From a virus (Duplodnaviria > Heunggongvirae > Uroviricota > Caudoviricetes): 36,128 nt of DNA. The stretch lies in the IMG/VR virus record IMGVR_UViG_2778261667_000013, positions 1 through 36,128 of that record; one strand, given 5' to 3'. The position numbers and the translations under genes are program-made. Numbering within the stretch: the first letter of the stretch is position 1; each line of letters opens with the position of its first letter. Below, in pieces: positions 4,484 through 31,272 of this stretch. The notes under the pieces are model-generated. The model made no database searches, was not told where the DNA came from, and was given only the letters and a program-made list of their open reading frames with translations.

Positions 4484-5055
4484 TACTGCTTATCCTCATA
4501 CGTGAAATAACAGTCTGTAAAAGCCGGTTTAAGGTCTTTAAATGTGTTTTCTAAAATGGATTCACCAAAGGCCGTCAGCGGCTCGCCGGTTGCCGATGCC
4601 CCCGTTCTGAAACGGTAGACCGGCGTTTTTGTTCCGATAACATTGACCTGCCATGCCCAGCGGATTTCCGGTATCAGCAGACGGTCGCCGCAGCGGTTTA
4701 TCCCCACCCGGAATGGTCGCGGCTCCGTAATGGTGATGGTATAGCCCAGGCTGGCGGCAAGGCTCTTAAAGTAAGGGATTGACAGCCCGCCTGTGGCTGC
4801 CATTTTTACCAGGATATTCTGCCGCCGCTCCTGTTGTGTGGCACCTTCACGGGGGACAACACCGTACACGCGCTCCCAGTCGGACAGCGTCATCGATGCC
4901 TGCAACGGGGTGATTTGTGCCAGAACGCTCGCCGCTGATGCCTTCACGGCCTCCATGACGTCAGCCTCGGCTGCCAGCTCTGCAGAAATATAATTCCCGT
5001 TCGGGTCATAACTGACAGGCGGCAGCATGGCGCGAAATAAATCGACCATATTCAT
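4483..5055 (-). CDS. tail/baseplate protein (Mu R / gp48-like)
   Basis: 190 aa ORF between baseplate J-like gene and tail fibre, matching Mu gp48 position; assignment by synteny and general resemblance. Confidence 0.55.
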
Positions 5056-5058
5056 GAA

Positions 5059-6138
5059 TCACCCCTCACGCGGAAAAGACTGAATATCAATATTTCCCGG
5101 GCGCAGCCATTCCCACGTTGACGCGTTAATAATGGCTTTTACGTTGTCTGCAGGCGTAACGATTCGCCGGTCACTCACGCCGGAAATGAGTGAAATCTGG
5201 GTTTCCAGTTGTGAAATAATTAATTCTTGCCCCGGCTCCAGTCGGTTCATAAAATCCGTGATAACGTCAGTTATCTGCGGTTTTATCTGCTCAACGGTCA
5301 GGCCGCTGGTTTTTACCCGGACAACGAAATCAACGGCTTTTTTCGTCGGGGCCAGTACCATCGTGTCCTTCGCTGTAACCGGGCGGACTTCCTCAATATG
5401 TGCCAGCACGGCATTAATCAGTTCCTGAGAGGGAAGATCATTAGCTGACGTAATGGCCACATCAACCGTCCCCAGTCCACGACGCAACGGCTCCACATAC
5501 GCAGACGTAACGCCATCCACTTCCAGCGCCCAGCGTTTGTAATCATATTTGTTACCGCCAGCGGGCGGCCTGCGCAGAATATCCAGATAACGCGCCAGCA
5601 GGTCGGCGTCGCTTTCCCTGTCCGTTCCGCCGGTCAGGGATTTAATCGTCACCGTGCTGTTGATGCCTTCCGGCGGGCTGACCAGCGTTGCCGTCTGCGT
5701 CGTGGATGCATTCGTCTGTGCCCCCGTGGCGGTGCTTTTTACCGTCACCTCCGCGCTGCCTTCATCACCGATGGTGCAGTCTGCTGTGGTGGCCACGCTG
5801 ACACCTTCACCACGAATTTCCGCACCGGCTGGCAGCGTCTTACCGGGTGTGCCGGTAATCACTACCGGACCGGATGAGGCTGTTGCTTTTTTACGAAAAA
5901 CATTGCGCGTGCGACAGTGCAGCTCCAGATATTCAGGGTCTGCCGTGTCAGGAAACACCTGACGGAGTATCCACCCCTGATGCATATAAAGCCCGTCAGC
6001 CACGCCGGATACGGCATTTGCACGAATGCGGTAATCGCTGTCAGCGCCGGTGTCTATGGTTTCTCCCGGCAGGGCGTTAGCGATATCACGTAGCTGGCGT
6101 TCTGTGTTTTCAGCAACGCCCGGAACAGGAAACGGCAT
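5059..6138 (-). CDS. baseplate J-like protein (Mu W / gp47-like)
   Basis: 359 aa; size, position and sequence character of baseplate J family; precedes gp48-like and fibre genes. Confidence 0.7.
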   Translation of the reverse strand: MPFPVPGVAENTERQLRDIANALPGETIDTGADSDYRIRANAVSGVADGLYMHQGWILRQVFPDTADPEYLELHCRTRNVFRKKATASSGPVVITGTPGKTLPAGAEIRGEGVSVATTADCTIGDEGSAEVTVKSTATGAQTNASTTQTATLVSPPEGINSTVTIKSLTGGTDRESDADLLARYLDILRRPPAGGNKYDYKRWALEVDGVTSAYVEPLRRGLGTVDVAITSANDLPSQELINAVLAHIEEVRPVTAKDTMVLAPTKKAVDFVVRVKTSGLTVEQIKPQITDVITDFMNRLEPGQELIISQLETQISLISGVSDRRIVTPADNVKAIINASTWEWLRPGNIDIQSFPREG

Positions 6139-25933: not shown

Positions 25934-26221
25934 TTAAAGGGAAGCGAGTTTTAATGGTGGCTTATAACACGCCTGCGCAAGCAGGTTAGCTCTTTCCACG
26001 GCTTTACGCATTTCCCGTTCTGCGTCCAGCATCCTGTTTACGGCTGACAGCACTTCATTATGATTCGTTTCTGACTCCGGGCTTTGGGCCTGTCTCGCCA
26101 GATAACTGGATAAATTACACATCTCAGCATGTCGGCGACGGGCTGCATCCCGGGCCTTGTCTGAAAATGCGGTATATTCACCGAGTGCTGCGTAGTCGAT
26201 ATTGGTGTCAGAACTCATCAT
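25934..26221 (-). CDS. hypothetical protein between activator gene and lysis cassette
   Basis: 95 aa ORF, Arg/Glu-rich, no recognisable motif. Confidence 0.4.
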   Translation of the reverse strand: MMSSDTNIDYAALGEYTAFSDKARDAARRRHAEMCNLSSYLARQAQSPESETNHNEVLSAVNRMLDAEREMRKAVERANLLAQACYKPPLKLASL

Positions 26222-26248
26222 TTCGTGTCTCCTTTTTTCTGAGTCTCA

Positions 26249-26280
26249 TTAATCAAAAAGCCCCACCTGGGTGGGGCTTT
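26249..26280 (-). terminator. rho-independent terminator overlapping the 3' end of the Mor/C gene
   Basis: Minus-strand hairpin GCCCCACC-CA-GGTGGGGC followed by TTTTTGAT and the stop codon; coordinates approximate. Confidence 0.6.
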
Positions 26281-26716
26281 TCAGCGAAGTCTGTTTTTGT
26301 CGTCGGTGTATCAGCTGCCATGCGTACCGGTCTGAAATGCCGTAACGGGGACAGAGCAGTGCCAGCGCCTGCCGGTGTGAGCATCCGTCTTTTACATGCT
26401 GCTGTAAATCAGCCATAAAACGGGTGTTACGCAGGGCACGTAACGCATGATCGCAACGGGGAATGTAAAACGGCGCACCGCCAAGAAAGCGGATCAGTTT
26501 GTTGATTTCGTCTTCGGTCAGCACATCATGTAACAGGGCATGGACACCGCCGGTTCGTTCGGCGTGTGCGCCGGTTTTACCGCTTAACGTCACGCCACCA
26601 AAAGAACGGATTAACCGGGTCAGGGCGGGGAAGCCAATCACGCTAATCAGTTGCTGCACGGAATCAGGCAACAGTGCCTGCGCATCGCGAAGATCTGTTT
26701 CACTGAAGGTCTGCAT
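26249..26716 (-). CDS. Mor/C-family transcriptional activator (middle/late gene activator)
   Basis: 155 aa; C-terminal region ...FLGGAPFYIPRCDHALRALRN...RYGISDRYAWQLIHRR matches the Mor/C signature (GG..YIPR plus C-terminal HTH). Confidence 0.8.
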   Translation of the reverse strand: MQTFSETDLRDAQALLPDSVQQLISVIGFPALTRLIRSFGGVTLSGKTGAHAERTGGVHALLHDVLTEDEINKLIRFLGGAPFYIPRCDHALRALRNTRFMADLQQHVKDGCSHRQALALLCPRYGISDRYAWQLIHRRQKQTSLKSPTQVGLFD

Positions 26717-26778
26717 GATGGCGTCTCCGGTAGTAACTTACTGTTATTATAGCCATACATGATCGCCTGTACAGACCA

Positions 26779-26806
26779 CAAAAAAAGCCCCTGCAAGGCA
26801 GAGGCT
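26779..26806 (-). terminator. rho-independent terminator downstream of GemA-like gene
   Basis: Minus-strand hairpin AGCCTCTGC-CTTG-CAGGGGCT followed by TTTTTTT; 7 nt after the stop at 26813; coordinates approximate. Confidence 0.7.
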
Positions 26807-26812
26807 GATTCT

Positions 26813-27226
26813 TTATTGTTTACGTGCTGCTCTGGCTCGTTTTCTGGCGTCTTTTGTCAGCGCCACCATCACCCCGAACAGTTGATCATCTGTCAGCCAT
26901 TCGATCACATGTTGCTTATACATGTGAGATGCCAGTCCTTCCGCATACGCCCAGGAACGACCGGCATCAGCCAGCAACGCTTCAATTTTGGATAATACTG
27001 ATTTTCTGCTCATTGCAACACGGGGGCGGCGACCTTTACCGGCGGGTGCCTTGCGCGGAAATCCCTGTTCGTGCATGTATTCCCGGATGATGCGCAGTTC
27101 ATCAAGATTGCAACGTGTGGTGCTGGTTTTACCTGTCAGGCGGGCCAGTGTCTGGCGATAAAGGGCATCATCCCACCCCAGATACGCCTGACCGGCTTTA
27201 ATGGCCCCGATCATCTTTTTCAGCAT
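26813..27226 (-). CDS. GemA-like protein (Mu gp16 / DUF1018-like)
   Basis: ORF 26813..27325; start placed at MLKKMIGAIKAGQAYLGWDD... (27226); position immediately before the activator gene as in Mu. Confidence 0.55.
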   Translation of the reverse strand: MLKKMIGAIKAGQAYLGWDDALYRQTLARLTGKTSTTRCNLDELRIIREYMHEQGFPRKAPAGKGRRPRVAMSRKSVLSKIEALLADAGRSWAYAEGLASHMYKQHVIEWLTDDQLFGVMVALTKDARKRARAARKQ

Positions 27227-27476
27227 GTTTGTTATCCTCAAAACGCACGGTAAAACGTGAAACGCCAATTCCTGACAGGAACGTGGCGGCACGATCAAGA
27301 GACAGCCACGTCTTGTAATCGCCACGGCGTTCCTGTAGAAAATAGGACACCCCGGCGCGACGATTCACAGCAAAGAGGTGATACACACCACCGAACCGCT
27401 GCACGACGAACTCATCCACGCCACCGCTTTCAGCCTGCTGCCTGAAGGCAGCTATTCCGATTTGTTCAATCTTCAT
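27198..27476 (-). CDS. hypothetical early protein
   Basis: ORF 27198..27512; ORF-track start ATG lies in the centre of a 26 bp palindrome, so downstream ATG (MKIEQIG..., 27476) is preferred; no clear RBS for either. Confidence 0.35.
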   Translation of the reverse strand: MKIEQIGIAAFRQQAESGGVDEFVVQRFGGVYHLFAVNRRAGVSYFLQERRGDYKTWLSLDRAATFLSGIGVSRFTVRFEDNKHAEKDDRGH

Positions 27477-27499
27477 AATGACCAAAACACTACTTTTGG

Positions 27500-27525
27500 C
27501 AGACCAAAACATATGTTTTGGTCTG
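27500..27525. promoter_or_regulatory. 26 bp perfect palindrome CAGACCAAAACATATGTTTTGGTCTG (operator-like site)
   Basis: Perfect dyad centred on CATATG, preceded by a second CCAAAAC...TTTTGG inverted repeat at ~27482-27499; intergenic between two early ORFs; coordinates approximate. Confidence 0.5.
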
Positions 27526-27556
27526 CGCTTAATTGTTATTTGCTCAATGCGGTGAA

Positions 27557-27808
27557 TTATTTATCACCATCACCGAGCGTCACTTCATGACAGGATGGCG
27601 TGCCATTTTTCCCCGCAGAGCAATAAATAAACTTATCTCCGTCGGTCATGGTGGCACTTCCATCATCACAATGCGTAATGGTTTTGATGAAATTTCTCTT
27701 TACCACGCAATGCCCATTTTTCGCATCATCAGAAGCCTTGTTAGTTGTCACACAAAGCGCAATACCCGTAGCAATCAGAGCGATAATAAAAATGTCAACC
27801 CATCTCAT
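27557..27808 (-). CDS. small Cys-rich protein with N-terminal signal/TM segment
   Basis: ORF 27557..27976 trimmed to MRWVDIFIIALIATGIALCV... (83 aa); hydrophobic N-terminus then soluble part with 4 Cys. Confidence 0.4.
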   Translation of the reverse strand: MRWVDIFIIALIATGIALCVTTNKASDDAKNGHCVVKRNFIKTITHCDDGSATMTDGDKFIYCSAGKNGTPSCHEVTLGDGDK

Positions 27809-27812
27809 CTTT

Positions 27813-28031
27813 TCACCCCGCGTAATCAGGTCCATGTTCCCATCTGGCATCGAGTATTTCCGTTCCCTCCGTCCGGCATGGGTTATCAAGTGCCATTTTT
27901 CCGCACTCCCCATACTCGACATCGACAAAATCAGCAATATCATTGTCCGTTGCGTTATCAGGAACGTCGATTTCAAGCGTTACAGTGATAGTTTTCATCA
28001 GGTTGTTACTCCGAGATTCAGAAAATTTCAT
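27813..28031 (-). CDS. small acidic hypothetical protein
   Basis: 72 aa ORF (possible internal start MKTITV...); Asp/Glu-rich. Confidence 0.35.
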   Translation of the reverse strand: MKFSESRSNNLMKTITVTLEIDVPDNATDNDIADFVDVEYGECGKMALDNPCRTEGTEILDARWEHGPDYAG

Positions 28032-28039
28032 GCCGGGAC

Positions 28040-28450
28040 TCAGTATGTGAAATAGACAGTTGCCACACCGTTATAGTGGTCAAACGACACGGCGTTTACC
28101 TCATAACTGGCCGGGAGCTTCGAGCCAAGAACGTATCCGGGCCACGTTTTCCATGGAATTTCTCTGCTCTCACTATCGCCATATACCGTACATCCCAGTG
28201 AGCCTACAGCTTCATAAGAACGCTTACCGCACGTTATGAACCCCAGATTTTGCTTACTGCCCTTAACAGAAATCGGGAGAGCACTGGCTGATGCGTTAGC
28301 AGCGCCCCGCTCCTGTTGGCTTGCGATATTCGCAGAGTTCGCAGCAGCTACAGCAGCCGTTGTCGCGGCGGTAGATGCCACAATAACTGCTGAAGCCTGT
28401 GCCTGTTGGGTAACGGTCAGCAATGCCGCCACAAAAATCATCTTCTTCAC
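28040..28450 (-). CDS. secreted protein with cleavable signal peptide
   Basis: 136 aa; N-terminus MKKMIFVAALLTVTQQAQA is a classic Sec signal peptide; Ala-rich linker then a domain with two Cys; ~190 bp non-coding region upstream. Confidence 0.55.
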   Translation of the reverse strand: MKKMIFVAALLTVTQQAQASAVIVASTAATTAAVAAANSANIASQQERGAANASASALPISVKGSKQNLGFITCGKRSYEAVGSLGCTVYGDSESREIPWKTWPGYVLGSKLPASYEVNAVSFDHYNGVATVYFTY

Positions 28451-28643
28451 CTGGTATCTCCTTTACATGCTGTGATTTTTCCAGCGGTTTTGCGCCGCAC
28501 TTCTGCTCCGCCAGACACCGTAAAAACGAATAGAGGAGCACCCCCTAAAACCCAGATATCTATAGTAAATAACAAGCCTGTTTGAGATACGGATACGCTG
28601 CCCTGGCTTTGCTATCAGCAGTCTTGCCTTACGGTTTTTCATC

Positions 28644-28835
28644 TCATCCTTCCTCGCTTTTTGCAGTTTCAAACCACGCATCCTGCCCCACAACATCATC
28701 ACCACATGGTGGTTCAGATTCTGAATAGCGACCGGCCCACCAGTATTTACCATTACGATGCTTTGCTGTGCCGCAACGCTGGCATATGAAAATTGACCCA
28801 TCACGCTGATAATGATGGATGTGCTCGTTACTCAT
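28644..28835 (-). CDS. small Cys/His-containing protein (zinc-ribbon-like candidate)
   Basis: 63 aa; HIHHY...ICQRCG...PPCGDD; ATGA overlap with upstream ORF. Confidence 0.4.
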   Translation of the reverse strand: MSNEHIHHYQRDGSIFICQRCGTAKHRNGKYWWAGRYSESEPPCGDDVVGQDAWFETAKSEEG

Positions 28836-29056
28836 TGTGCAGCCTCCTGTTTTGCCACTTTAAACGCCCGTAACATCGGGACCGTTTTACCGGTGATGAC
28901 GGTTCTCATTAAAAGACCGCCACCGCTCTCATGGCGCACTTCAGGAGCAACAAACAGCGCCGCATCCACAACCCGGCAATAGCGACGGAACTCCCAGAAC
29001 CAGCAGGTAACAATGATTTTTGCGGTGACTCCGTAGTCATAAAATTCAATATTCAT
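28832..29056 (-). CDS. hypothetical early protein
   Basis: 74 aa; ATGA overlaps on both sides (translationally coupled cluster). Confidence 0.4.
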   Translation of the reverse strand: MNIEFYDYGVTAKIIVTCWFWEFRRYCRVVDAALFVAPEVRHESGGGLLMRTVITGKTVPMLRAFKVAKQEAAQ

Positions 29057-29280
29057 TTGCAGTTAAACCTTCTTTTGTGACGTTCTACAGCGGCTTTCAT
29101 GGCGTTGTGCACGGTTCTTTTAATAATCCGGCGTCCCGCACTGTCATAGAACCGCCACCGGGAAGCCTCCGGATATTTAGGGAACTCAACCGCCGCGCTG
29201 TCGTCATTCATCCTGTATTCGTGGCGTTCTCCGGGCGGCTGGTATATTGCTTCGGTAACACTGAGAAGTTTAAAAGCCAT
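29053..29280 (-). CDS. hypothetical early protein
   Basis: 75 aa basic protein; start 3 nt after the DUF2786-like gene stop. Confidence 0.4.
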   Translation of the reverse strand: MAFKLLSVTEAIYQPPGERHEYRMNDDSAAVEFPKYPEASRWRFYDSAGRRIIKRTVHNAMKAAVERHKRRFNCK

Positions 29281-29282
29281 CG

Positions 29283-29993
29283 TTATCCCCTCCCCAGTGC
29301 CAGCGGCCTGTTGTTCTGACCATTAACTCCCTGATGCAGTCTGGCGTTTTTCCCGGCGATAAAACCGGCTGTAGCAGCAAACTCTGCACCCCTGCACGCT
29401 TTAGCTGTGCGCATATCCCCGTCGCGCAGCCCTTTAGTGCTGTGCAGGTTCTTTCTGTAAAGCTCAAGGCGGCTTTTTTCTTCCGGGGAGACGTCATACA
29501 CCGCAATGACATCACGGGCACCAAAGACCCAGCCTTCGCAGAACTGGTCGCCACGGGCCACCCGCGTGGACGGACCGCAACGTTTGCAGTGTTTATCCTG
29601 ATATTTCTTGCGCTCTGCCATCATCTGACGGGAAAGCACATCAAACGCGTAGGCCGCAATTTCCGGGCGGCTGTCAGGGCCATAAAAACGAACGTAACGT
29701 TTGAGTGAACCAGAAGCCCGGTACTCACCGGAGATGTAACACTCGACACCGAAGGCTTTACATACCAGGTCACACAGGATGTGCATATAACGCGGCGGCG
29801 TACTGGCATCGCTCGGCGCACCCGCGCTGGCAGCTTCCTGAATGTCGAACAATTCCGCGTCGTTTTCGCTGATACCATGCTGGCGCATATAAGCCTGGGC
29901 TTTTGCAATAGCGTTAGCGGCTTCTTCCGGGCTTGATGTTCCTCTGGCAAGGCGTAACAGTTTTTTGATTTTGGCAATGTATTTATCTTTCAT
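29283..29993 (-). CDS. DUF2786-like protein
   Basis: 236 aa; N-terminus MKDKYIAKIKKLLRLARGTSSPEEAANAIAKAQAYMRQHGI resembles the DUF2786 N-terminal helical domain; C-terminal part has CxxC (HCKRCG) and further Cys. Confidence 0.5.
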   Translation of the reverse strand: MKDKYIAKIKKLLRLARGTSSPEEAANAIAKAQAYMRQHGISENDAELFDIQEAASAGAPSDASTPPRYMHILCDLVCKAFGVECYISGEYRASGSLKRYVRFYGPDSRPEIAAYAFDVLSRQMMAERKKYQDKHCKRCGPSTRVARGDQFCEGWVFGARDVIAVYDVSPEEKSRLELYRKNLHSTKGLRDGDMRTAKACRGAEFAATAGFIAGKNARLHQGVNGQNNRPLALGRG

Positions 29994-30006
29994 GGTCGCC
30001 TGAACC

Positions 30007-30189
30007 TCAGCGCCCTGGATTCTGAATTACGCAACTTCCAGCACGGCCTTCAGGAACGTGGGGAGTTCGTTCTGGCTGCGGCGCTGGATGAACATCTGCT
30101 GTCGATTGAAAACTGGTCGCAAGACGATTAAAACAAACGATTGTCAGATTAATTTCGCGGGCGAATTTTTTTTGCTTGGCGATATTCAT
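30007..30189 (-). CDS. short ORF downstream of repeat copy A (possibly a gene remnant)
   Basis: 60 aa; good RBS (GAGGA) supplied by the repeat, but protein is low-complexity and Pro-rich in its second half. Confidence 0.25.
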   Translation of the reverse strand: MNIAKQKKFAREINLTIVCFNRLATSFQSTADVHPAPQPERTPHVPEGRAGSCVIQNPGR

Positions 30190-30202
30190 AAATAAACTTC
30201 CT

Positions 30203-30273
30203 CAGATTCAGGCGTAAGCCAGCCCTGGCGGGTTTACGCCATATACAAATAAAATTAAAAACAGACTTATTAA
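30203..30273. repeat. intergenic direct repeat copy A (hairpin + RBS cassette)
   Basis: cagattcaggcgtaagccagccctggcgggtttacgcc + AT-rich tail; ~38 bp core identical to copy B except 1 nt; coordinates approximate. Confidence 0.7.
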
Positions 30274-30821
30274 CTACGACGTTCAGCTTTCCGGTAATGA
30301 CGGTCAACAGACTTTACGAACGCCTTCACATCACGGGCAATCGAATCCAGCGGATAATATTCATCCAGCAGTTCCATCCCGCTGAATCGAATCTGAAAAA
30401 AATCAGGCTTATCTTTATATGACTCCATCAGGTCAATAAACCGCAGCTGACGCGGGAGGGATTCCTGCACGCCTGAAATAGTGAGCAAATCATCTTCAAG
30501 GATGTATGCAAGGTCTACCATATCCTTACAGTCAGACATCATGGATATTCTTGTCAGTATGTTCCGTGTGGCGATATACAGCGCGGCTGTGTCATTCGCC
30601 ATCATGGCGAACAAATCCCCCTGAATATAAGCCCCCTTACTGGCCATAGCATTCCCGGCAATCTGCGCATCAAGTACCACATACATAAAATCGCCAGGTG
30701 CACCCAGATGGCCCAGCAATGATGACGCCCATAACGTTACATTGGTTAACTTCCCAGATGAACGGACAGCAAAACCTTCAGGAGTAACAATAAATTCCCA
30801 GACTTTATCTTTCATATACAA
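30270..30821 (-). CDS. hypothetical protein (accessory module gene 2)
   Basis: 183 aa; no recognisable motif; lies between the two repeat copies. Confidence 0.5.
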   Translation of the reverse strand: MYMKDKVWEFIVTPEGFAVRSSGKLTNVTLWASSLLGHLGAPGDFMYVVLDAQIAGNAMASKGAYIQGDLFAMMANDTAALYIATRNILTRISMMSDCKDMVDLAYILEDDLLTISGVQESLPRQLRFIDLMESYKDKPDFFQIRFSGMELLDEYYPLDSIARDVKAFVKSVDRHYRKAERRS

Positions 30822-30879
30822 ATCCCCTTAATTCAGGCGCAGACCTGTTTACCTGCGCCATAAAAAAACGAAGTCAGAG

Positions 30880-31272
30880 TTAAAAATCGAAGACGTCAGT
30901 TAATTCCCGCTTCAGTGAAACGCACTCAGAATAAAAGCCCTCGCTCTCACCGCACCATCTGACGACTACACAGCCTTTTGATGTGCCGAACTTAAAGAAA
31001 CTCCATGTCTGATGACCTTCCCCGACATCACATTCTTCGGTAACCACTTCAGCCTCTGTCAGCGGTTCATCTTTCAGGTCGTCAAGGTCTCCGACGATGT
31101 CCTCAATCCAGACTTTTTCGCAGCCTTCCTGAAAGTGGAAAAATGTAAACACGGTTCCCCATACTCCCCGGGAATAATCACCACGAAAAACAAGTTCATC
31201 GTTTTCATTCTTAACTACTTCTTTAAATGTACGCCCAAGCATTTCATTGATAACGGTAACACTCATTTTCAT
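30880..31272 (-). CDS. hypothetical acidic protein (accessory module gene 1)
   Basis: 130 aa, acidic with 6 Cys; RBS GGAG supplied by repeat copy B. Confidence 0.5.
   Translation of the reverse strand: MKMSVTVINEMLGRTFKEVVKNENDELVFRGDYSRGVWGTVFTFFHFQEGCEKVWIEDIVGDLDDLKDEPLTEAEVVTEECDVGEGHQTWSFFKFGTSKGCVVVRWCGESEGFYSECVSLKRELTDVFDF

Follow-up and report, generated by a model that had tools for sequence, protein, structure and literature searches.

T4 Spackle (Sp) and Imm, P22 SieA and HK97 gp15 are periplasmic or inner-membrane proteins that block the entry of superinfecting phage DNA. The morons of lambdoid phages, a concept of Hendrix and Juhala, are autonomous units, each equipped with a promoter and a terminator, and are expressed from the prophage, and the semi-essential early region of phage Mu (kil, gam, cim, gemA, mor) consists of small dispensable early genes transcribed from Pe. 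DUF1471 proteins (YdgH/BhsA/McbA) are known as enterobacterial periplasmic stress and biofilm proteins. Exported phage proteins can also block receptors from the periplasmic side, as found for T5 Llp acting on FhuA and for Rtp45 acting on LptDE (PMC9586334, PMC12685063); Llp contains a stabilising disulfide, Cys11-Cys58 (PMC9586334). Here we describe three small adjacent genes, coding for the proteins p136, p61 and p83 of 136, 61 and 83 amino acids (aa), in the DNA of a virus of the class Caudoviricetes (IMG/VR record IMGVR_UViG_2778261667_000013, positions 1 to 36,128; this whole stretch of 36,128 nucleotides (nt) is referred to as the window). Judged by their distribution among related prophages, the genes are optional cargo, lost or gained independently of one another, and lie distally in an early operon. 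The best explanation we can offer, to which we give an even chance, is that they are cassettes in a variable early-operon slot and that the exported pair, p136 and p83, acts on the cell envelope during lytic development.

Occupancy of the slot in related prophages

Nineteen loci were compared, comprising the window, five annotated Escherichia coli prophages and 13 IMG/VR contigs that share an RNA hairpin downstream of the cluster; these contigs were selected because they match 18 nt of the hairpin exactly, and the loci are therefore closely related. The slot is empty in three of the 19 loci and holds p136 only in six, p83 only in two, p136 with p61 in one, p136 with p83 in three, p61 with p83 in one and all three genes in three. 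Seven occupancy states between the same flanks therefore indicate that the genes are optional and act as separate cassettes. This pattern corresponds to the presence or absence between conserved flanks that is typical of morons, and it supports the view of a preliminary description of this DNA that the genes lie outside the core programme, since related prophages carry none, one, two or three of them. Among 5,426 complete E. coli genomes, p136 was found in 64 (at 47 chromosomal and 19 plasmid places), p83 in seven and p61 in six, and all three genes together only in four.

The window as a whole is, on its gene content, a Mu-like transposable prophage on the minus strand. The gene order along this strand is Ner, MuA, MuB, semi-essential region, GemA, Mor, lysis genes, head and tail. 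The domains Mu-transpos_C, HTH_Tnp_Mu_1 and rve of the Mu transposase and an AAA/TniB-type B protein were detected, and the window also encodes a Ner-like open reading frame (ORF), DUF3164, DUF7448 and DUF2786 proteins, GemA and Mor, as well as a holin, a GH108 endolysin and a tail fibre. E. coli chromosomes hold annotated prophages that are collinear with the window. This lineage is common in E. coli (114 of the 5,426 complete genomes match a 1.3-kb query); almost no DNA match to it was obtained among ca. 50,000 isolated phage genomes, and the DNA of positions 12000-36128 likewise has almost no match in this collection.

With the Mu transposase, B protein, GemA and Mor detected and the relatives collinear, the setting originally proposed for the cluster, the early region of a transposable phage, is well founded. 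The same applies to the three adjacent ORFs, which are all located on the minus strand, match a PHROG without an assigned function end to end and are annotated in RefSeq relatives (Table 1). The low-GC stretch that had been ascribed to the cluster stands for p83 only (42.9% GC, distinctly low). Otherwise, the lower GC content is a trait of the whole early region and not specific for the cluster, as reflected in values of 48.1% for the cluster, 49.0% for the semi-essential region, 50.5% for the early region and 55.8% for the late region.

Table 1. Positions of the cluster genes, their predicted segments and the bordering elements in the window.
Feature	Position	Strand	Details
59-aa basic ORF	28463..28642	-	pI 11.9; phrog_1380, E = 6e-9; annotated in RefSeq relatives
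p136 (136 aa)	28040..28450	-	phrog_8805, E = 1e-82, full length; predicted exported protein, unassigned PHROG function
p136 Sec-type signal peptide (predicted), residues 1-19	28394..28450	-	MKKMIFVAALLTVTQQAQA; predicted cleavage after AQA, then S
p136 C-terminal domain, residues 56-136	28043..28285	-	core GFxTCG...SLGC...IPW..PGY.LG..SY.V...D.YN..AT.YF.Y.
p61 (61 aa)	27813..27998	-	phrog_8773, E = 1e-45, aligned from Met12; pI 4.05, 15 Asp/Glu
p83 (83 aa, 5 Cys)	27557..27808	-	phrog_8391, E = 1e-43, full length
p83 hydrophobic anchor/signal (predicted), residues ~3-21	27746-27802	-	strongly hydrophobic 15-residue core, residues 6-20
Perfect palindrome, 28 nt	27499..27526	.	GCAGACCAAAAC-ATAT-GTTTTGGTCTGC; 12-bp arms, 4-nt loop
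p92 (92 aa)	27198..27476	-	phrog_7844, E = 7e-70; overlaps GemA start; unassigned function

Borders of the slot and transcription of the cluster

According to the locus comparison, the conserved upstream border of the cargo slot is the gene of a basic 59-aa protein. It occupies the ca. 190 bp (28451-28643) in front of p136 which had been considered as non-coding, and its coding character is documented by the phrog_1380 match, a frame retained in diverged copies of ca. 41% identity and a ratio of nonsynonymous to synonymous substitution rates (dN/dS) of 0.20. The ORF begins 1 nt past the stop codon of the 63-aa gene in front of it and ends in a TAA that overlaps the p136 Shine-Dalgarno sequence; the 59-aa ORF and the p136 gene are predicted to be translationally coupled. 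Members of this basic small-protein family are about 58-64 aa long (one copy 111 aa) and their genes open with near-identical ATGAAAAACCGTAAGGCAA. Further copies are present in P1-like plasmids, in phage HEMP4 and, at about 4505-4699, in the loci L008-L010, and two paralogues occur in tandem (4795-4971 and 4968-5303) in locus L003. The conserved 5' ends of these genes may constitute recombination joints for cassette exchange.

The large palindrome noticed after the last gene is indeed perfect and occurs only once in the window. Homology between differently loaded prophages restarts exactly at the first base of the hairpin, which therefore marks the downstream border of the slot. The 111 nt around the palindrome have a folding z-score of -5.9. 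Another, small hairpin follows ahead of the start of the 92-aa gene. The hairpin is kept in the 19 loci with 11-12 of the 12 stem pairs retained. Two internal stem changes, C to T at position 2 and A to G at position 5, result in U-G and G-U wobbles on the sense transcript and in mismatches on the other strand. The 12-bp hairpin is very stable, but a U-run is absent on the sense strand and the hairpin was scored as terminator-like on the opposite strand only. We read it, on the basis of only two substitution events, as an element of mRNA stability, processing or translational control and not as a terminator. No relevant Rfam family was found at a permissive E-value on 26000-30500 or at the gathering threshold on the whole window, and a scan of genome contigs for the hairpin sequence yielded chance matches in unrelated taxa only.

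From the DUF2786 gene to gemA the junctions range from -29 (overlap) to 41 nt, with the 80-nt hairpin spacer as the sole exception; the gaps between the 63-aa gene, the 59-aa basic ORF, p136, p61 and p83 amount to 1, 12, 41 and 4 nt, respectively. The genes gemA and mor, which are needed downstream, share the orientation of the cluster. In a simple consensus scan no sigma-70-like site was detected on the coding strand of 27583-31000, including the DNA upstream of the cluster, and the promoter-like sites overall showed no excess (five found vs 5.5 expected). The preliminary description had considered the cluster as moron-like with a possible promoter region at 28451-28643. This region is occupied by the conserved 59-aa gene and no sigma-70-like site precedes p136, which speaks against a promoter of its own; an autonomous unit is disfavoured by the coding nature of the upstream DNA, the gaps of 1-41 nt and the lack of a sense-strand U-tract in the hairpin.

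The p136 family

Translation of p136 starts at a GTG codon with an AAGGAG Shine-Dalgarno sequence 6 nt 5' of it. The Sec signal peptide noticed earlier on this protein was recovered in a rule-based analysis, which assigned MKK, MIFVAALLTV and TQQAQA, followed by S, to the n-, h- and c-regions; the positive n-region, the h-region of 7-15 residues and the small residues at -3/-1 are those of a Sec type I signal. This n/h/c layout and the AxA site are kept in the family homologues examined, which contain 1-2 Lys/Arg, a hydrophobic core and an AxA-type site. The hydrophobic core is too short to span the membrane. There is no Cys near the signal peptide and hence no lipobox, so that p136 is not a lipoprotein; the consensus [LVI][ASTVI][GAS]C was found neither in p136 nor in p83.

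Next to the signal peptide lies an Ala-rich linker, which is long in the temperate versions and short in those of 45-kb phages; the C-terminal domain behind it is conserved and has two invariant Cys. The possibility that the Ala-rich segment forms another transmembrane helix was rejected, since its Hessa-scale sum is +2.8 and short homologues lack it. Likewise, the C-terminal YxY/F was discarded as a signal for outer-membrane proteins or DegS, as some members carry C-terminal extensions. The domain is rich in aromatic residues, of which W100, W103, Y116 and Y126 are conserved. A model of residues 56-136 based on 37 sequences, with a predicted local distance difference test score (pLDDT) of 87.7 and a predicted template modelling score (pTM) of 0.75, consists of six beta-strands and one helix; a full-length model from a shallow alignment (pLDDT 48) was discarded. 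p136 thus probably contains a beta-rich domain of ca. 70 aa stabilised by a Cys74-Cys87 disulfide. A Foldseek search with the domain model gave no significant structural match, and the modelled family appears to represent an orphan fold without a solved relative. With dN/dS values of 0.12-0.24 for p136 and 0.08-0.17 for p61, the substitution pattern of both genes clearly points to purifying selection.

The family is small, with 13 clusters at 50% identity and E <= 1e-10 among 1.84 billion representatives, and between 56 and 96 homologues were counted, the 96 proteins being obtained by a profile search. Those with a named organism all belong to enterobacteria or their phages and cover the genera Escherichia, Salmonella, Shigella, Citrobacter, Cronobacter and Rahnella. 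A second clade of ca. 48% identity resides in P1-like phage-plasmids beside homologues of hot, humD and phd/doc. Further members were found in one lambdoid-type prophage, in one 91-kb plasmid, in phage Av-05, which belongs to the Vequintavirinae, a virulent subfamily, and in 45-kb phages of E. coli and Klebsiella, where they adjoin a C5-methylase and a terminase. The family is therewith common to temperate elements of Mu-like, P1-like and lambdoid type and extends to at least one phage of the Vequintavirinae, and the motifs and Cys are retained down to 35-45% identity in unrelated phages. For each of the three cluster proteins, homologues were detected in further phage genomes, which range from 45 to 256 kb (lifestyles not checked) and include ~250-kb Klebsiella phages. 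Pfam, NCBIfam and PADLOC scans of the three proteins gave no meaningful match, searches of PDB sequences with p61 and with profiles of p136 and p83 returned only noise, and nothing on p136, p61 or p83 was found in the literature.

The proteins p61 and p83

The acidic protein was initially given as 72 aa. The gene is real and its product acidic (pI about 4.1), but the length has to be revised: the first-ATG version (72 aa, 27813-28031) lacks a Shine-Dalgarno sequence, and the better start at Met12, which is used by PHROG and RefSeq and preceded by GGAG, gives 61 aa. As an acidic protein without a hydrophobic segment, p61 is predicted to reside in the cytoplasm. The conserved core DFVDVE(Y/F)GECG.M.L.NPC is found in homologues from E. 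coli phages of ca. 111-116 kb, a Pantoea phage and an Stx1c phage. Many p136-only loci keep p61 as an internal-deletion remnant. Short in-frame remnants, in which the 5' end is fused to the 3' end, were seen in locus L002 (4160-4225) and in L065, L066, L069, L072 and L075; the same deletion appears to have spread or recurred.

For p83, five Cys, a hydrophobic core of 15 residues and the phrog_8391 match agree with the Cys-rich protein of ca. 83 aa with a hydrophobic N-terminus that was reported before. The family comprises only five clusters among 5.8 billion proteins. Its N-terminus is variable in sequence, with an invariant Cys19 at the end, and is followed by the invariant domain HCVV..F..TITHCDDGSAT.T..DKFIYCS..K.G.PSCHE.TL.DGDK. 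Weak but colinear homologues are present in the Klebsiella phages Snook (49 kb) and YC1 (252 kb), which carry a cleavable signal peptide (AMA|AD and SYA|K) and then the same four Cys; the His residues are not conserved in them. As these homologues keep the Cys but not the His behind a signal peptide, the p83 domain is considered as exported and as holding disulfides rather than zinc, and its four Cys probably form two disulfides. A zinc site, as a reading of the HC...HC...C...CH pattern, was rejected because the distant homologues lose the His and keep the four Cys. At the lipobox position p83 reads I-A-L-C, with Leu at -1, in five of six sequences, and only P0061 (F-G-A-C) fits; p83 could be signal-anchored, cleaved or an atypical lipoprotein. 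Its dN/dS of 0.55-1.7 is derived from very few changes. Taken together, export of p136 and p83 is supported by the predicted N-terminal signal peptides of the p136 homologues examined and of the distant p83 homologues.

Further features of the early region

The product of the gene downstream of the hairpin, p92, is 96-98% identical in relatives (dN/dS 0.04-0.12) and has no match in the isolated-phage collection. Its start is ambiguous (27477-27512, minus strand): the PHROG members take an ATG in the hairpin loop (104 aa), and RefSeq an ATG past the second small hairpin (92 aa) without an obvious Shine-Dalgarno sequence. A weak match to the ParC family (E = 0.0085) is below threshold. The gap between gemA and mor (26746-26806, minus strand) contains an intrinsic-terminator-like hairpin with a T-run (26806-26786) and, just past it, a 10/12 promoter-like site (26773-26746), in place of which relatives carry a gene for 112-159 aa; in this phage, mor may be transcribed as a separate unit. 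Within 26000-31000, terminator-like hairpins are in excess (16 vs 4.8 +/- 2.1 expected from shuffles), most of them inside coding sequences.

Upstream of the slot, the 63-aa protein (28644-28835, minus strand) displays a CxxC...C pattern, belongs to phrog_7369 and gives weak sub-threshold matches to Prok-RING_1 and C2HC zinc fingers; it is conserved, yet other genes replace it in some relatives. A 75-aa protein (29053-29280, minus strand) shows a marginal PADLOC match to 'E2' (E = 0.00097 over 35 residues), which is probably noise. The sole sizeable intergenic space of the semi-essential region is a 276-nt gap upstream of the DUF2786 gene (29994-30269). In relatives this site holds different small genes, one of them on the opposite strand in locus L003, and it possibly represents another variable spot or a region with an internal promoter.

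Discussion

The following scenario is proposed for the cluster. Having no transcription signals of their own, the cassettes would be transcribed together with the early operon upon induction or infection, as in Mu, and be partly translationally coupled. p136 would reach the periplasm via Sec, its signal peptide being cleaved after AQA, p83 would be inserted or exported by its hydrophobic N-terminus and display its small 4-Cys domain in the periplasm, and p61 would stay in the cytoplasm as an acidic protein. On the periplasmic side, p136 and p83 might block receptors or the DNA entry of other or sister phages, resulting in superinfection exclusion and protection of the progeny. By analogy with the described periplasmic blockers, superinfection exclusion is the role with the best precedent, and this or another effect of p136/p83 on the envelope is plausible. 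It is about as likely, however, that they counteract a defence, modulate the host or hit a target shared by many infections.

Several points weigh against this scenario. The function of all three proteins is argued from sequence and precedent, and no match to annotated superinfection-exclusion, defence or anti-defence families was obtained in PHROGs, Pfam, NCBIfam and PADLOC. The distribution of the p136 family over Mu-like, P1-like, Vequintavirinae and 45-kb phages is hard to fit with the block of a single receptor, and p136 is not a lipoprotein, whereas Llp, Cor and Rtp45 are. The signal-peptide assignments stem from a rule-based analysis and the absence of promoters from a simple consensus scan only, the substitutions in p83 are too few to demonstrate purifying selection, and at least p61 is dispensable because it is often cut to a deletion remnant.

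The preliminary description had also suggested lysogenic conversion. Classical morons or lysogenic-conversion genes, driven by their own promoter in the repressed prophage and altering the surface of the lysogen, would be compatible with the moron-like presence/absence between conserved flanks, the GC content of p83 below that of its surroundings, the stable hairpin 3' of the last gene and a weak promoter-like site (9/12) at 27583-27556. However, the putative promoter region is a conserved coding gene, junctions of 1-41 nt without a promoter-like site upstream of p136 offer these genes no space for separate promoters, the sense strand of the hairpin lacks a U-tract, gemA and mor are required downstream in the same orientation, and a p136 homologue exists in the Vequintavirinae, a virulent subfamily without a lysogenic state. 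Lysogenic conversion by autonomous morons is thus unlikely and in our view the least supported reading; given the missing room for promoters, the Vequintavirinae homologue and the homologues elsewhere, a role in lytic growth is the likelier one. In a host-takeover or anti-defence role, p61 would serve as an acidic mimic or inhibitor and p136 and p83 would neutralise periplasmic or membrane components of the host, such as envelope-associated defence, proteases or cell-wall enzymes, and not other phages. We rate this as rather improbable, although the early-operon position, the acidic nature of p61, the position of homologues within groups of small hypothetical genes of other phages, the spread of the p136 family across phages with different receptors and an aromatic-rich p136 domain that might bind glycans or proteins are all in line with it; similarity to known anti-defence proteins and PADLOC or Pfam matches are lacking, and no partner gene is conserved across the contexts. 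A tentative, if doubtful, reading is that the p136 family represents an undescribed periplasmic effector, a new exclusion or counter-defence class directed at a conserved envelope component common to all these infections, which would, for example, block the passage of DNA through the periplasm or disarm an envelope-located defence. In this reading, p83 could be a second, independent small 4-Cys effector of the envelope.

The p136 domain might alternatively be a divergent, disulfide-containing relative of DUF1471, delivered by the phage as a host-like modulator of envelope stress. Both families are restricted to Enterobacteriaceae and combine a signal peptide with a small alpha/beta domain ending in ...A.(V/I)Y, and a colinear local alignment was obtained with hhalign. 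The profile-profile comparison, however, aligns the signal peptides only (domain alone: P = 0.067, probability 0.8%), neither a Pfam PF07338 nor a Foldseek match was found, and we consider this relationship very unlikely. Even less can be said for decaying passengers without a current function. The frequent deletion remnants of p61, the slot left empty in 3/19 loci and the dN/dS of p83, with its very few changes, would be expected from decay, but the clear signature of purifying selection on p136 and p61 and the motifs and Cys retained at 35-45% identity in unrelated phages make it extremely improbable. The envelope-directed action of the exported pair during lytic development is the explanation that we prefer.

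The three genes are ordinary optional accessory genes of phages and not a new kind of system, and their families are already deposited in RefSeq and PHROGs as hypothetical proteins. What is added here is an account of the slot, of how widely the p136 family is spread and of the orphan fold of this family. If exclusion or envelope tampering holds true, two small effectors would join the short list of periplasmic phage-against-phage factors, and the p136 domain would provide a fold without a solved relative. The slot, composed of a fixed basic gene, a fixed RNA hairpin and 0-3 cassettes in between, offers a natural case of cassette shuffling in a Mu-type early operon, and its borders can be used for finding further cargo genes.

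Among the known systems, Llp, T1/phi80 Cor and Rtp45 are similar in being small (about 6-8 kDa when mature), phage-encoded, exported and made by the infecting or induced phage, and p83 resembles them in size, hydrophobic N-terminus and the invariant Cys at its end. They differ in that no sequence similarity was found, that the predicted signal of p136 is of type I without lipobox and that p83 has Leu at -1 in 5/6 sequences. T4 Sp is small and soluble and resides in the periplasm after cleavage of its signal peptide, which is also the prediction for p136, although neither Sp nor Imm, SieA and HK97 gp15 show detectable sequence or fold similarity to p136. From DUF1471 (PF07338), p136 is distinguished by an extra, putatively disulfide-bridged beta-hairpin. 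With the morons of lambdoid phages the cluster shares optional genes between conserved neighbours, a sometimes deviating composition and often exported products, but its genes are packed into the early operon without space for promoters. Finally, while p136, p61 and p83 are all unrelated to the named semi-essential genes of Mu, the cluster occupies the same position between B and gemA/mor as the semi-essential region and, like it, forms a string of small, dispensable early genes.

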